Positions 1,422 to 15,368 are shown, counted from the first letter of the stretch. The stretch: 21,281 bases of DNA from a virus (IMGVR_UViG_2671180673_000012); one strand, 5' to 3'. Translations and numbers: made by a program. The notes: a model not told the origin generated them from the sequence alone.

Positions 1422-3896
1422 TTAAAAATCAGCCTGACTCGGGATCAGTTTTTGCCAGATAACTGAAACGTATTTTGCCTGGTAACGGGCGTCATCAAGT
1501 GCATTATGGCGCTCACCTTCGAATGGAATAGCCGTTCTGGNATCGAAGTCTATGGCTTTCCCCAGCTCAACGATTGTGCGTACATCGCGATCGTTGTAGT
1601 AACGCCACGGGCAGGGGATCCCCTGCCGTTCGTATGAACGGCGCAAAATCGTGTTGTCGAAGTTGGCTCCATTTCCCCAAACCTGAACAAAAAATTCACC
1701 GGAGTTTTCGTCGATAAATTCNCGCAATTGTAACAGTGCATCATCTAACGGGATTTCATCGGTCATAATGGCAGATTGCGCTTCGCGTGATTGCTTAAGC
1801 CACCATTTAATGGTGTCCCGATCAATGACTCCGCCAGCAGTTTCCAGATCGATAGTCTTACTAAATTCCGGTCCCATATCTCCGGTTTGCGGATCGAAAA
1901 ATATTGCACCTATTGAGATGATCGGGGCATCAGGATTTTTTCCCATGGTTTCAAGGTCGATCATTAGATGGTCACACGTCCTGCTGGTGGATGTGATTTC
2001 NTGATGACCGTTCACCTTAATTGNGTGATCTGCCGTCTCGCCAGTTTCATTATCGCTATNGTGATGCTGATTGCCGNCAGTGTTCTCCTTGTGTGGATGT
2101 TCAGCGCCTTCCATTTCCTCCGGATCATCTTCCTGAACTTCAACCTGATACTCTTCATCGAATGTTTCNTGGTATGTTGCGTCGCCCATCACCGCGCCAC
2201 AATCAGGGCAGTTGCCGCCGCCGGTCTGACCGCAGGCGGTGCAGACTTTTTCCACTTCCTGTTGCGCCACTGGTTCAGGCTGTTTCGTTTCTGGCTCGTT
2301 TTGTAACGCATTTGGGCTGTTTTGTTCCGCTTTCTGGCCGTTCTGTTCCGTTTCTTGCTGGTTCTGATTCACTGAATCGCGGGTTTCAATCCCCTTCACC
2401 CATTTCGGATCATTCGGGTCGCTAATCCCTGCAACAAATTCACCACGTGATACAGCAAGCAACTTATTGGCGTCAGGCTGGCTGATATTGGCTGCCTGCA
2501 TAATTTTGTTTACTTCGTCAGCGGTAACTTTTACCGGCTCTGGTTGTGCGATCGTGTCAGATGCACCAGTATTTTGTTGTGAACCTGAGTACGTGCCGTT
2601 TTTACGTGCGAAGTATTCCTCTTTTGTGATTTCCGTAGCTCCCAGGGCCAGTGCTTTTTCCAGACCAGAAAGTTTGTTTGCGCGACCGTATTTTTCGCCG
2701 TCCTTATCGGTGAAAAGGAAGTAGAACGGTCCCTCACGCTCTACAGATGGTTCGTCTTCCACTTCGCATTCGTTTTTTTCGTTGTCCGGCATTGCCGTTT
2801 CCACTGCATCAGTTTCTGGTACTGGTGACGGGAGAGTACCAGCTGTGCCCTGATTTGTTCCTTCGTCATCTTCAAACACGCCCTTGGTAGTCAGGTATTC
2901 AGTGATGTATTTGTTCAGTGCTACGGGATCTTTGTGAATGTCGATCGGACGCTCACGGACAAGGCCAAAAATAGTCTGACGGTCGTAGCGAACGGCATCG
3001 GGTTGTTTGCGCATTGATGCGGAAATGCGCTTCCAGTCTTCGCGATCTTTGTCGATAACTTCATTTTTTGCCCAGCGATGGATGCTGCCGTCAATGTTTC
3101 CGGTATCAATATCGCCAGGCCAGAGAGCGTAGGCCAGTTCTTCATCCAGCGTTTTCCATGTCTGCTTGTATTCGCGACAAATGGCGGCAGTGACTGGGTT
3201 GATTTTTCCTGCTGAGTTTTCAGTGTTCTGTTGATTGACTCTGGCGCTGGCGAGATCAACAACAGACGTGTATTTTCCAGTCTCTTTGCGCTCTGCGTCC
3301 TGCCGTTTTTTCCAGTTACGTAATTCAGCCTGAATTTCGGGCCATTTGGCACCCGGATTACATTTGTGTTTAACCCATCCGATAGCGAACAGTTTGCGTT
3401 CCGGATACATAGCGTTAATTTCAGGCGTTTTCATCAGTGCTTCAACGATATGCCCGTCAAAGGTAGCAACGTCTTCCTGCAGTAATTCCTGCGCGTCAAT
3501 CGCCATATCAACGGTGATGTTTTCACATGTACCGAACTTAACCAGGACCGCGTTCTGTACTTCAAGGGACAGCTTGTCAAAATTGACGTTCATCGGATCG
3601 GATTCTGGTTCGACCGGAATAAAGGAAGCGGATTCCTCATCCCAGCGGTTTTCCTGCATATATTCAGCATCCCAGGAATCGAGGGCAGGGCGGGGTATAC
3701 CGGGTTTATCCTCGCAGACAAGAAATTTATAAGCGCAGTCCTGAGCAGCCGGATAATGTTCCAGGAATTGCCAGTGAAATTTTGCGCGGGCGCGACGTTC
3801 ATCACCGGCTTCAATGGCAGTGGCTACAGCGACGGCACCTTCTTCCTTTATTGCCTGTTCGTCCGGAATGGCGGCGCAAATAAAGACTTTACTCAT
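1422..3896 (-). CDS. Large early protein with C-terminal DnaQ-like (DEDDh) 3'-5' exonuclease domain and central Cys4 zinc ribbon
   Basis: 824-aa ORF; exonuclease motifs near the C-terminus (MIDLETMG ... WGNGANFD ... HNALDDA); [16 protein letters not shown] zinc ribbon; GAGG RBS 9 nt upstream of ATG at 3896; several n-derived X residues. Confidence 0.8.
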
Positions 3897-7821: not shown

Positions 7822-7892
7822 CTCGCAATATTCATACCGGATCACTTCCGGCAATTTGTGAGTAAAAAGATTCGGTATCAGAAGAGGTGAGT

Positions 7893-8933
7893 ATGGCTAA
7901 CGCCTGGCTCAGATTATGGCATGACATGCCAAATGACCCTAAGTGGCGAACAATTGCCAGGGTGTCAGGGCAGCCAATTGCAACAGTGATGGCAGTGTAT
8001 ATCCACCTTCTGGTGAGCGCGTCACGAAATGTCACGACATGTCACGGCGTGTCACTACGTGGTCACATTGATGTCACGACGGAAGATTTAGCAAGTGCGC
8101 TTGATGTGACGGAAGAAGTAATTGATTCAATTTTACAGGCAATGCAGGGGCGGGTACTTGATGGAGATTTAATCACCGGATGGGAAAAACGCCAGGTACT
8201 GAAAGAGGACAATGGCAACGTTTCACAAACCGCGAAATCCCCGGCAGAGCGCAAGAGAGCGCAGCGCGAGAGGGAAAAATTACGAAAACAGAATGAGGGG
8301 TGTCACGACGAGTCACGCATATGTCACGACATGTCACGACGAGTCACGACAGATAAAGATACAGATAAAGAATTAAACCCCACACATAACGCGCACGTGC
8401 GCGAGAGTGCTCCGACCAGTGAGTCGAGTGGTACGCCGTTGCAGGCAGCAGAACCTGCATCCCTGGATGGACTGAGCGAACCCATCGGGAAATTTCCGAT
8501 GGTCGATGACTGGCATCCGTCGCCGGATTTTCGACGACGGGCTGCGTTGTGGGGGATGGCTTTGCCGGAGCCGGAATTTACACCTGCTGAACTTGCCGCT
8601 TTCCGGGACTACTGGGCAGCGGAGGGGAAAGTTTTCACGCAGGTTCAGTGGGAGCAGAAATTCGCCCGTCACGTAAATCACGTCAGGGCGCAGGTTAAGC
8701 CAGTCAGCAAGGGGGTAAACCATGCAGCAGCACCAGGTGGCACCGCATCACGGGCAGTTCAGGAAATTCGGGCAGCACGTGAGCAGTGGGAACGTGAAAA
8801 CGGATTTATCAGCGACGGAAACGGTCTGGAAGCTGTGGGAACTCATGGGGGAGGTTTATTCGAACCGCTGGACCCAGAAGAACGGGGCCGCACCTTCGAA
8901 GCTCTGGATTGCCCAGATTGGCGCGATGACTGA
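7893..8933 (+). CDS. Replication initiation protein (O-like position) with DnaT-like C-terminal region; contains iterons
   Basis: ORF-track entry starts at GTG 7887; ATG at 7893 has an AGAGG RBS 5 nt upstream; two clusters of 10-11-bp GTCACGAC repeats lie inside the coding sequence. Confidence 0.75.
   Translation: MANAWLRLWHDMPNDPKWRTIARVSGQPIATVMAVYIHLLVSASRNVTTCHGVSLRGHIDVTTEDLASALDVTEEVIDSILQAMQGRVLDGDLITGWEKRQVLKEDNGNVSQTAKSPAERKRAQREREKLRKQNEGCHDESRICHDMSRRVTTDKDTDKELNPTHNAHVRESAPTSESSGTPLQAAEPASLDGLSEPIGKFPMVDDWHPSPDFRRRAALWGMALPEPEFTPAELAAFRDYWAAEGKVFTQVQWEQKFARHVNHVRAQVKPVSKGVNHAAAPGGTASRAVQEIRAAREQWERENGFISDGNGLEAVGTHGGGLFEPLDPEERGRTFEALDCPDWRDD
8021..8080. repeat. Iteron cluster 1: six direct repeats of (T)GTCACGNC at 10-11 bp spacing
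   Basis: GTCAC(G) cores start at 8021, 8031, 8041, 8051, 8062 and 8073. Confidence 0.6.
8302..8370. repeat. Iteron cluster 2: five GTCACGAC repeats followed by an AT-rich AGATAAAG doublet
   Basis: GTCACG cores at 8302, 8312, 8323, 8333 and 8343; AGATAAAG at 8351 and 8363. Confidence 0.6.
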
Positions 8934-9387
8934 ACAGCAAATCCGGCTGGTCTGCCGTCAGTGCATGGACCGCTGCCGGGCGGGTGAAACGTGGCCCCCG
9001 GACCTAGCTGAGTTTGTTGCACTGATTTCGGAGAGTGGGGCAAATCCATTTGGTCTTACGGTGGATGCAGTGATGGAAGAGTACCGGCGCTGGCGCAATG
9101 AATCCTGGCGATACGACGGGAGTGATAAATACCCGTGGCCACAGCCTGTGCTGTACCACATCTGCCTCGAAATGCGTACCAGAGGGATTGAGCGCCAGAT
9201 GACGCAGGGTGAGTTAAAACGACTTGCAGAACGGCAACTGACGAAATGGGCAAAGCATGTTGGTAACGGGATGAGTGTTCCGCCAGTGCGACGACAACTG
9301 GAAGGGGCGAAACACCCGCAAGGGCCAACGCCAATTGAACGGCTGAAACAGGAATACGAACGCCGGAAGGCAGCTGGTTTTATTTGA
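8722..9387 (+). CDS. Replication protein P-like (DnaB helicase loader family)
   Basis: Resembles lambda P as recalled (WIAQIGAMTEQQIRLVCRQ ... WPPDLAEFVALISE ... KYPWPQP); GGGGG RBS 6 nt upstream of ATG at 8722; start uncertain (alternatives at 8845 and 8926) because the ORF overlaps the upstream gene by 212 nt. Confidence 0.65.
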   Translation: MQQHQVAPHHGQFRKFGQHVSSGNVKTDLSATETVWKLWELMGEVYSNRWTQKNGAAPSKLWIAQIGAMTEQQIRLVCRQCMDRCRAGETWPPDLAEFVALISESGANPFGLTVDAVMEEYRRWRNESWRYDGSDKYPWPQPVLYHICLEMRTRGIERQMTQGELKRLAERQLTKWAKHVGNGMSVPPVRRQLEGAKHPQGPTPIERLKQEYERRKAAGFI

Positions 9388-14284: not shown

Positions 14285-15368
14285 CTTCACTGAGTATCGG
14301 GGTGATAAGCTCAAACTAGCGAGAATGGCTGTTGGGCTTTCTTGTGAAGAGTTAGCCGAAAAAATTGGCAAGACAAAGCAATTCGTTAGCAAACTGGAGA
14401 AGGGGTGCAGGCCATCGGAGCAATGTCTTGAGTTAATATCTTCAGCGCTTATGATTAAGTCCAGTTTTCTTTTTACTGAACGAAAATACGCTCTGGAAAG
14501 TGATGTCTGCCATTTTCGGAGTAAGAAGTCCAGGACTCAAACGCTGACTAATAGTGTATTGGCCAGGGCTGAGATTCTTAATATTATAATTTCTGCTGTT
14601 GAAGGTGAAATCGAATTTCCTGACGTTAACATACCGGAGCACCCAGGGGCTGAATTACTTACTCCGAATGATATTGAGCGAGTGGCAGAAGATTGTCGCC
14701 GTGCCTGGAATTTAGGTCTTGGCCCTATATCATCAATGGTTAAATTGGCGGAGAGTTTAGGGGTAATCGTTGCGCATGTTACGGGAGTCGATGATCGTGT
14801 TGATGCTTTTACTGTTCACAATAACAGGCCTGTTATCATCAGGAACAATGTTAAAAAAAGCATATGTAGATTTCGCTCTGATTTAGGTCATGAATTAGGG
14901 CATTTAGTAATGCATGAGGGCATAACGACAGGTGATAAACTTACGGAATCACAAGCCGATCACTTTTCGAGCGCCTTATTAGTTCCCAGGTTATCTTTCA
15001 TTAAAGAATTTCCACGAATACGAGGTAAGCAATTCGACTGGAATGCTCTGGTTGAATTTAAACTTAGATGGAAAATCAGCCTTAAAATGTGTATTTATCG
15101 AGCCAGCGCATTAGGCTTATTGACCCAGGAACAGGCAAGAACTGGCTATATGCATCTTAATTCCAGAGGGTATACGAGAGTTGAACCTGGTGATGAACTT
15201 TTGCGCCCTGAAGAACCCGGCATGCTGGCCGAGGCGATTGAAATGCTGGATGATGCAACCTGGCTAAGAATTCTTATGAAAACTGGCTTGAGCCAAGATT
15301 TAATTCGTGAGTTGTTCTCCATCAACAGACCTATTACAAATCCAAGAAATATTTTCCAGATTGTTTGA
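14265..15368 (+). CDS. Fused XRE-family HTH + ImmA/IrrE-family (COG2856, HEXXH) zinc metallopeptidase
   Basis: N-terminal HTH (LSCEELAEKIGKTKQFVSKLEKG); HEXXH motif DLGHELGHLVMHEG in the central region; ATG at 14265 (ORF-track entry starts at GTG 14262). Confidence 0.8.
   Translation: MEHQVNNFTEYRGDKLKLARMAVGLSCEELAEKIGKTKQFVSKLEKGCRPSEQCLELISSALMIKSSFLFTERKYALESDVCHFRSKKSRTQTLTNSVLARAEILNIIISAVEGEIEFPDVNIPEHPGAELLTPNDIERVAEDCRRAWNLGLGPISSMVKLAESLGVIVAHVTGVDDRVDAFTVHNNRPVIIRNNVKKSICRFRSDLGHELGHLVMHEGITTGDKLTESQADHFSSALLVPRLSFIKEFPRIRGKQFDWNALVEFKLRWKISLKMCIYRASALGLLTQEQARTGYMHLNSRGYTRVEPGDELLRPEEPGMLAEAIEMLDDATWLRILMKTGLSQDLIRELFSINRPITNPRNIFQIV

Follow-up and report, generated by a model that had tools for sequence, protein, structure and literature searches.

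Why does a replication gene of an Escherichia coli prophage carry, within its own coding sequence, two arrays of the same short repeat? The question is raised by the viral sequence IMGVR_UViG_2671180673_000012, which was analysed over 21,281 nucleotides (nt); this whole stretch is called the window. The window is a lambdoid prophage of E. coli integrated beside ompW, and the gene in question, at the position of gene O in phage lambda, spans 7893-8933. The GTCACG arrays and the A+T-rich (AT) tract next to them are likely a theta-replication origin of the prophage, of the iteron type and inside the gene for its own initiator. The features on which this answer depends are as follows.

7893..8933, + strand: replication initiator gene, 346 amino acids (aa), with a modelled N-terminal DnaD-like winged helix (aa ~1-100), a basic helix (aa ~117-134), a disordered linker and a C-terminal DnaT-like domain (aa 201-267).
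8019..8082, + strand: iteron cluster 1, six direct GTCAC(G) cores, encoding aa 43-63.
8300..8350, + strand: iteron cluster 2, five direct GTCACG cores, encoding linker aa 137-153; candidate origin core.
8349..8378, no strand: A+T-rich, purine-biased tract, ACAGATAAAGAT twice and then AATTAAAC; candidate DNA-unwinding element and recombination joint.

On the + strand, the GTCAC cores of cluster 1 started at 8021, 8031, 8041, 8051, 8062 and 8073 (spacings of 10, 10, 10, 11 and 11 bp), and those of cluster 2 at 8302, 8312, 8323, 8333 and 8343 (10, 11, 10 and 10 bp). The gap between the clusters was 221 bp (8081-8301), and the distance from start to start was 281 bp. The first-pass annotation had described eleven iterons in two clusters with a spacing of 10-11 bp and had proposed a repeat finder as a check. 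The core positions and the simulations described below agree with this, and Tandem Repeats Finder detected period-10 arrays at both clusters (8021-8066 and 8301-8351). The core named in that annotation did not stand: GTCACGAC was exact in 6 of 11 copies, three others were one-base variants (GTCACGAA, GTCACGGC and GTCACTAC), and the last two (GTCACATT and GTCACGCA) shared only GTCAC(G). According to the position frequencies, GTCAC was common to all 11 copies, mostly with G on its 3' side and T or A on its 5' side, and the conserved core is GTCACG, not GTCACGAC. The maximum density in the window was 6 cores per 60 nt. Among 1000 first-order Markov simulations of the window, 589 runs reached a maximum of 1, 406 of 2 and 5 of 3, so the repeat density is far above chance. 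The rest of the 21 kb window contained no further GTCACG cluster.

The repeat unit is 10-11 bp long with a 6-bp asymmetric core, and all units have one orientation, bar one inverted site.

8106..8110, - strand: single inverted core, GTGAC on the + strand and GTCAC on the - strand, 33 bp downstream of cluster 1.

The inverted core was retained in 17 of 21 loci of the GTCACG class, with GTG as the Val codon in 15 of 15, and two loci retained it with a shifted frame (TGT GAC). This core is a possible twelfth site, oppositely oriented. Among close E. coli relatives (L063-L142, IMG/VR prophage contigs), cluster 1 had 4 or 6 copies, cluster 2 had 4, 5, 6 or 9, and the 12-bp ACAGATAAAGAT unit was present 2 or 3 times. 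Most relatives had four copies in cluster 1 at an equal gene offset, and a 21-bp indel (two repeats, 7 aa) divided the six-copy from the four-copy form. This variation in copy number fits arrays sited in loop- and linker-coding DNA. A scan of the initiator gene for promoters and terminators gave nothing above chance. Just 5' of cluster 1, at 8000-8009, lies TATATCCACC, which encodes V-Y-I-H-L and resembles a DnaA box (TTATCCACA, two mismatches).

The AT-rich doublet that had been noticed after cluster 2 was present as two copies of ACAGATAAAGAT at 8349-8371, directly after the array. The GC content was 35% over the 40 nt at 8340-8379, and the lowest 30-nt window had 23%. An AGATAAAGATAAAGA-type (AGATAA-type) tract was located directly 3' of the last cluster 2 iteron in 21 of 21 GTCACG-class loci examined. 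The lowest 30-nt GC content in the tract was 10-33% across these loci, even where the locus had 59-69% GC. Of the 75 Asp, Lys and Glu codons within the 12 codons after the last iteron in nine high-GC hosts, 64 ended in A or T, compared with 178 of 493 in the rest of the same genes (p=4e-16). As judged from these sequences, the tract is kept by DNA-level selection against the GC content and codon bias of the host. A binding-site array beside a selected, easily melted tract is the signature of an origin, and 8349-8378 is a candidate DNA-unwinding element. Cluster 1 is also followed by an AT-rich patch in the window (8100-8139, 35% GC); no conserved AT-rich neighbour of cluster 1 was found in high-GC relatives, where the GC minimum after it was 40-53%. 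Cluster 2 and its tract are therefore the likely initiation site, with cluster 1 a likely accessory. We also considered cluster 1 as a separate origin, which was judged unlikely because its AT patch is not kept in those relatives.

The best surviving alternative is that the repeats are initiator sites for control, acting by roadblock autoregulation, titration or 'handcuffing', with the true origin elsewhere. Iteron arrays of plasmids have a known role in copy control. Cluster 1 would suit such a role, as it has no conserved AT-rich neighbour and is missing from four loci that keep cluster 2 (L046, L053, L057 and L059). A softer version, in which cluster 1 alone serves in control, is plausible. 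For both arrays together we consider a pure control role improbable, because cluster 2 is always joined to a strongly selected AT tract that a control site would not need, because the window offers no other GTCACG cluster, and because the characterised analogues of the same layout are origins (PMC6022878, PMC5737612, PMC5703833).

An origin within the initiator gene is further supported by the distribution of the arrays. A scan of species-representative genomes (GTDB) gave 55 loci in Alpha-, Beta- and Gammaproteobacteria. Repeat arrays were present in nearly all of them, at the same two gene offsets (~nt 116-190 and nt 340-500), and were built on one of the lineage motifs GTCACG, GTAACG, (C)GAACGC and GCAACG. 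The spacing across the family was 10 bp in 86 cases and 11 bp in 27. GTCACG was the motif in Serratia, Pseudomonas and Bordetella, and GTAACG in Enterobacter (L034) and Pantoea (L030). Both clusters had the same motif in all 41 loci where each zone gave a call (GTCAC 24, GAACG 10, GTAAC 6, GCAAC 1), a concordance that is inflated by shared ancestry and realistically represents three or four independent switches. In every case both arrays, which lie ~220 bp apart, had switched motif together.

Some loci had arrays of other forms. In L018 (Erwinia; 3140-3185 and 3410-3455), L030 and L034, overlapping copies of CGTCACGTCACGTCACG were spaced at 5 bp, and palindromic CGTCACGTGACG units gave both orientations within one cluster. 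The distant locus L060 (Lysobacter) carried six GTCAC copies with a period of 9-10 bp at 3056-3110, much closer to the gene start and encoding VTSVTSVTNVTV, and GTGACGC copies in the opposite orientation at the cluster 2 position (3370-3430). In L050 and L055 (Serratia and Pantoea; 3300-3480), the N-terminal domain was fused to a segment that by eye resembles a GIY-YIG nuclease (YVYYV...GIS.NPWAR); the linker carried CTACGTAG-type repeats in place of the GTCACG type, and cluster 1 was absent.

The arrays are inherited together with one part of the protein. In E. coli, one N-terminal domain with its repeats (88-90% nucleotide identity) was joined to three different C-termini: a DnaT-like one with a P-like loader (the window and O157:H7), one without an adjoining loader gene (EC20, Tritos and 606R7), and one followed by a DnaC-like ATPase (O145 RM9467). 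YdaU of Rac-SA53 had the C-terminus of the window (~90% identity over ~190 residues) behind a DUF1376 N-terminal domain. It lacked GTCACG, and its homology to the window started exactly at the AGATAAAG tract. Across the 55 loci, the sole constant partner of the repeats was the N-terminal domain. YdaT was found in 5 loci, YdaS in 5, a P-like protein in 6, an immunity repressor in 1 and a DnaT-like C-terminus in 5 or 6. The downstream gene encoded a lambda-P-like protein, an IstB/DnaC-like ATPase or a DnaB helicase in 5 of 10 loci scanned, and had no Pfam match in 4 of 10. These gene structures indicate that the N-terminal domain and the repeats move as one module, and that the C-terminus, the helicase loader and the upstream genes are swapped.

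Homology to the alternative C-terminal modules breaks exactly at the AT tract, and both arrays and the 12-bp unit vary in copy number among close relatives. The repeats could thus be slippage-prone simple sequence, or module-boundary homology that aids lambdoid recombination, without any protein binding to them. We regard this as very unlikely, since slippage would leave unexplained the invariant 6-bp core with its variable spacers, the strict phasing, the concerted switches 220 bp apart and the persistence over three classes of Proteobacteria, and since cluster 1 is not at a module boundary. A recombination-prone boundary accounts for the junction at the AT tract, but not for the phased, co-varying cores.

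It is also hardly to be expected that the repeats are read by another factor, such as a host protein or a phage protein like the upstream YdaT/CII-like regulator. Two observations would suit such a factor. The predicted recognition helix and wing (AMQGRVLDG...GW.KRQ) were near-identical across the motif classes, and no residues that track the motif class could be assigned; most differences fall in the loop encoded by the repeats and the basic segment beyond aa 105. Furthermore, a YdaT-family gene, in some cases annotated as Rha or cII, was directly upstream in the examined E. coli loci with an intact region. However, the repeats persist across the 55 loci despite the rarity of YdaT, YdaS, P-like proteins and immunity repressors there, and among hosts of three proteobacterial classes the motif follows the phage module and not the host.

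To compare codon use inside and outside the cores, the first 160 codons were aligned from 16 genera with a pairwise aa identity of 57-76%, including Escherichia, Serratia, Entomomonas, Aquitalea, Rahnella, Gilvimarinus, Bordetella, Superficieibacter, Chromobacterium, Acidovorax, Stenotrophomonas, Scandinavium and others. Among invariant degenerate columns, a single codon was used by all 16 genomes in 6 of 8 columns with the third base inside a core and in 3 of 38 outside the cores (Fisher p=2e-4). The mean codon entropy was 0.13 bits inside and 1.37 outside. The three single-codon columns outside the cores were ACG, which supplies the sixth base of GTCACG, in two cases and GAT of the AGATAA tract in the third; other invariant residues had up to six codons. 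In both clusters GTCACG fell in three reading frames: cluster 1 encodes A-S-R, V-T and G-H, and cluster 2 encodes S-R, C-H and V-T. Because synonymous sites are frozen in the cores and the motif is read in three frames, the aligned genes argue firmly that the repeats are selected as DNA and not as protein. The encoded peptide varied with the motif class (for example ASRNVTRGH and ASNATERGRTQ), so the DNA sets the protein sequence at the repeats and not the reverse. That the repeats merely mirror a repeated peptide needed by the protein can be dismissed on the codon data and the three-frame reading, even though S44, V47, T48, G57, H58, V61, T62, S148 and V151 are invariant in the protein alignment: successive copies encode unrelated dipeptides, synonymous positions are frozen inside the cores only, relatives with another DNA motif have another peptide at that place, and the segments are modelled as a low-confidence loop and a linker that tolerate 7-aa indels.

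The initiator itself had a DnaT domain in Pfam (PF17948, aa 201-267, E=9.6e-18, 64 bits, cutoff 25). The full-length DnaT profile NF002770 gave 97 bits against a cutoff of 201, with only the C-terminal half of the profile matched, which indicates that the initiator is not a full-length equivalent of DnaT (primosomal protein I). PHROG families annotated as 'replication initiation protein' matched it strongly, further PHROG matches were to 'replisome organizer' (E=4.5e-5) and 'DnaD-like helicase loader' (E=4e-7), and many family members are labelled 'phage replisome organizer' by NCBI. For the N-terminus, TIGR01714 (phage_rep_org_N) gave E=9e-4 and 19.4 bits, below its cutoff of 49.8, over profile positions 1-118 of 119. 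A Pfam search with the 55 family members found no N-terminal domain, only weak HTH_Crp_2 matches. An AlphaFold model built on the 55 homologues was confident for residues 11-100 and contained a helix (29-45), a loop, two helices (63-70 and 74-84) and a beta wing. Beyond the winged helix, a basic helix (117-134) was followed by a disordered tail. In this model the N-terminal domain is a winged helix, probably DnaD-like; Foldseek gave no significant match. The first-pass annotation had placed both clusters in the linker-coding part of the gene. On the model this applies to cluster 2, whose aa 137-153 are in the disordered linker, but not to cluster 1, whose aa 43-63 lie inside the folded N-terminal domain, where they finish helix 29-45 and form the loop that leads to helix 63-70, ahead of the helix-turn-helix.

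The initiator gene is followed by a gene for a predicted helicase loader.

8926..9387, + strand: lambda-P-like helicase loader gene, overlapping the initiator stop codon; identified by PF06992, PHROG 109 and its RefSeq name.

Its product matched Phage_lambda_P (PF06992) of Pfam with E=1e-15 and 58 bits (cutoff 26) and PHROG 109, 'P-like helicase loader', with E=4.5e-54, and its RefSeq name is 'replication protein P'.

The lambda origin (ori) lies within O and has four iterons of 18 bp and an AT-rich region of 39 bp (PMC6022878). The lambda iterons are 18-19 bp long, have internal dyad symmetry and are bound by initiator dimers (PMC6022878). The locus in the window resembles lambda ori in that the probable origin is inside the initiator gene and phased repeats are followed on the 3' side by an AT-rich, putative unwinding tract (PMC6022878), and in that the repeats and the N-terminal, DNA-binding part are exchanged as one module. 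As with lambda O and P, the partner of the C-terminal part would be a P-type loader, and a P homologue is the product of the next gene. Unlike O, the initiator has no sequence relation to O, Pfam finding in it only the C-terminal DnaT domain. The repeats also differ, being eleven short direct repeats with a 6-bp core and without dyad, in two arrays 221 bp apart, one of them in the coding sequence of the DNA-binding domain; the AT tract is ~30 bp long. The locus would work like lambda ori but is outside the O family proper.

In oriL of phage SPP1, G38P binds boxes inside its own gene 38, beside an AT-rich unwinding element (PMC5737612). The predicted arrangement here is similar, with binding boxes embedded in the initiator's gene next to an AT-rich element, and the initiator shares with G38P the 'phage replisome organizer' naming, a weak full-length TIGR01714 match and the lack of an AAA+ domain. 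It differs in the TIGR01714 score, which is below the family cutoff, and in host range and loader types. SPP1 has in addition a distant second binding region, oriR, whereas the window has no second GTCACG cluster elsewhere. In plasmid pSK41, the DnaD-like N-terminal domain of Rep binds four Rep boxes in the centre of rep, and Rep as a protein can dispense with its central linker, which the ori DNA encodes (PMC5703833). The window initiator resembles Rep and the RepA_N family in the repeats inside the gene and probably in a DnaD-like N-terminal domain. However, it has no Pfam RepA_N match, it belongs to a phage of Proteobacteria and not to a Firmicutes plasmid, it has two arrays and not one, and it has a DnaT-like C-terminus with a P-like loader where Rep has a DnaG-interacting domain. 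In fold and layout, the DnaD-like initiators (RepA_N and replisome organizers) are the closest, though the initiator is below their sequence cutoffs.

The Rac prophage offers a comparison within E. coli. An active origin, oriJ, has been reported for Rac (PMC3945230), and oriJ plasmids are cited (PMC11014345). The ydaU-ydaV genes of Rac have the same gene position, after ydaS/ydaT-type genes, and Rac-SA53 YdaU shares with the window initiator its C-terminal 190 residues at ~90% identity and the P-like neighbour. Unlike the initiator, Rac YdaU starts with a DUF1376 domain and lacks GTCACG repeats, and K-12 YdaU is followed by a DnaC-like ATPase, not by a P-like protein. The linker-coding stretch of Rac ydaU carries repeats of its own, direct and inverted, immediately ahead of the same AT-rich joint.

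L143:2970-3080 (E. coli K-12 Rac ydaU): TGTTCAA(ACA) repeats.
L002:2360-2475 (Rac-SA53 ydaU): TGTTCAA(ACA) repeats.

These may be the cognate sites of the DUF1376-type Rac module, possibly oriJ. The next feature is also shared with Rac-SA53, where the equivalent stretch has an imperfect version of it.

8390..8403, no strand: perfect 14-bp G+C-rich palindrome CGCGCACGTGCGCG, ~12 bp past the AT tract, on the C-terminal-module side of the joint.

We tentatively include this palindrome in the origin.

The layout is familiar from phage lambda, and the mechanism would be the one expected, by analogy, from the textbook scheme of an iteron origin. Upon derepression, the gene at 7893-8933 would be transcribed and translated, and the N-terminal DnaD-like winged helix would bind the short direct repeats. 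Because the spacing is 10-11 bp and dyad symmetry is absent, monomers would probably line up head to tail along one face of the DNA helix. Cluster 2 would be occupied, as would cluster 1 and the one inverted site ~220 bp upstream. The nucleoprotein complex, possibly looped between the clusters, would destabilise the adjoining AGATAAAG tract (8349-8378), and the C-terminal DnaT-like domain and the lambda-P-like protein (8926-9387) would bring the host DnaB to the opened DNA.

The origin reading is carried by DNA-level selection on the repeats and the AT tract, by the concerted change of motif and by modular inheritance, which the comparison of genomes demonstrates. The proposal of the first-pass annotation, initiator-binding iterons in the gene at the O position, is supported by this comparative evidence, and we infer binding, unwinding, helicase recruitment and a specific role of cluster 1 from the analogous systems. 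Several points weigh against an origin. The AT tract is short, ~30 bp compared with 39 bp in lambda, and shared ancestry reduces the weight of the motif concordance. The recognition helix and wing hardly differ between motif classes. In the distant members L033, L039 and L044, cluster 1 is absent or the repeats are weak. The N-terminal 160 residues matched no Pfam family, and their TIGR01714 match is below the cutoff. Published binding, unwinding or origin activity for the family was not found in the searchable literature. No description of a GTCACG origin was found there either, subscription literature being outside the search, and this widespread family of origins and initiators is probably undescribed.

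The result assigns, to the base, a probable origin to a module present in ~40% of complete E. coli genomes and currently annotated only as 'DnaT-like domain protein' or 'replisome organizer'. It fits the textbook scheme and so extends, and does not change, the current understanding. The arrays are a clear case of DNA-level selection overriding codon choice within a coding gene, and the four motif classes are a natural series for specificity change in a DnaD-like winged-helix initiator. Cluster 1 is unusual in that, according to the model, it is inside the coding sequence of the DNA-binding domain, so that a surface loop of the protein would have its sequence and length set by the very site that the protein reads. 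Cluster 1 may serve separately in control, by looping, autoregulation or origin pairing, and not as part of the initiation site. A more speculative reading, which we consider doubtful, is that the motifs form a 'specificity code' (GTCACG, GTAACG, GAACGC and GCAACG) that defines replication groups of prophages, with cluster 1 perhaps a separate control. If true, induction of one prophage could supply an initiator that also activates the origins of other prophages of its class, co-resident or defective, since ~40% of complete E. coli genomes carry the GTCACG type, some at up to five places. Such cross-firing would drive in-situ amplification and mobilisation of neighbouring DNA. Cross-activation of origins among co-resident prophages of one class is open to test.

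The window at 7850-8400 was 100% identical to E. coli strain 118UI. The upstream gene order in 118UI is integrase, excisionase, exonuclease, dicB, helix-turn-helix repressor, YdaS-like and YdaT-like. The gene corresponding to 7893-8933 is annotated there as 'DnaT-like ssDNA-binding domain-containing protein' and that corresponding to 8926-9387 as 'replication protein P', which is followed by DUF1627, DUF977, RusA and Q. Matches of at least 80% identity to 7850-8400 were found in 2212 of 5426 complete E. coli genomes (~40%), at up to five places per genome. The family numbers more than 800 members. The module is also present in O157:H7 prophages, at 89% identity in one strain, in isolated phages (Tritos, Evi, vB_EcoS-813R8 and others) and in prophages of Pseudomonas, Bordetella, Chromobacterium, Serratia, Stenotrophomonas, Sphingomonas and others.

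A search among plasmids for a natural minimal replicon with the module returned only large E. coli plasmids or mislabelled chromosomes and phage-like elements of ~51 kb from Pseudomonas aeruginosa, and is no proof of replicon function. Two circular P. aeruginosa sequences of ~50.9 kb listed as plasmids, CP137943.1 and CP124671.1, carried the N-terminal module at 64% identity. They resemble Pseudomonas phages of 52-59 kb in the phage collection and may be phage genomes or phage-plasmids.

Single N characters occur in the window at 1541, 1722, 2001, 2024, 2060, 2077, 2169, 16284, 16457 and 18089, all away from the repeats. Two other tandem repeats were present, one of 21 nt in 3.7 copies at 2280-2355, within the exonuclease gene, and one of 20 nt in 2.1 copies at 14881-14923.

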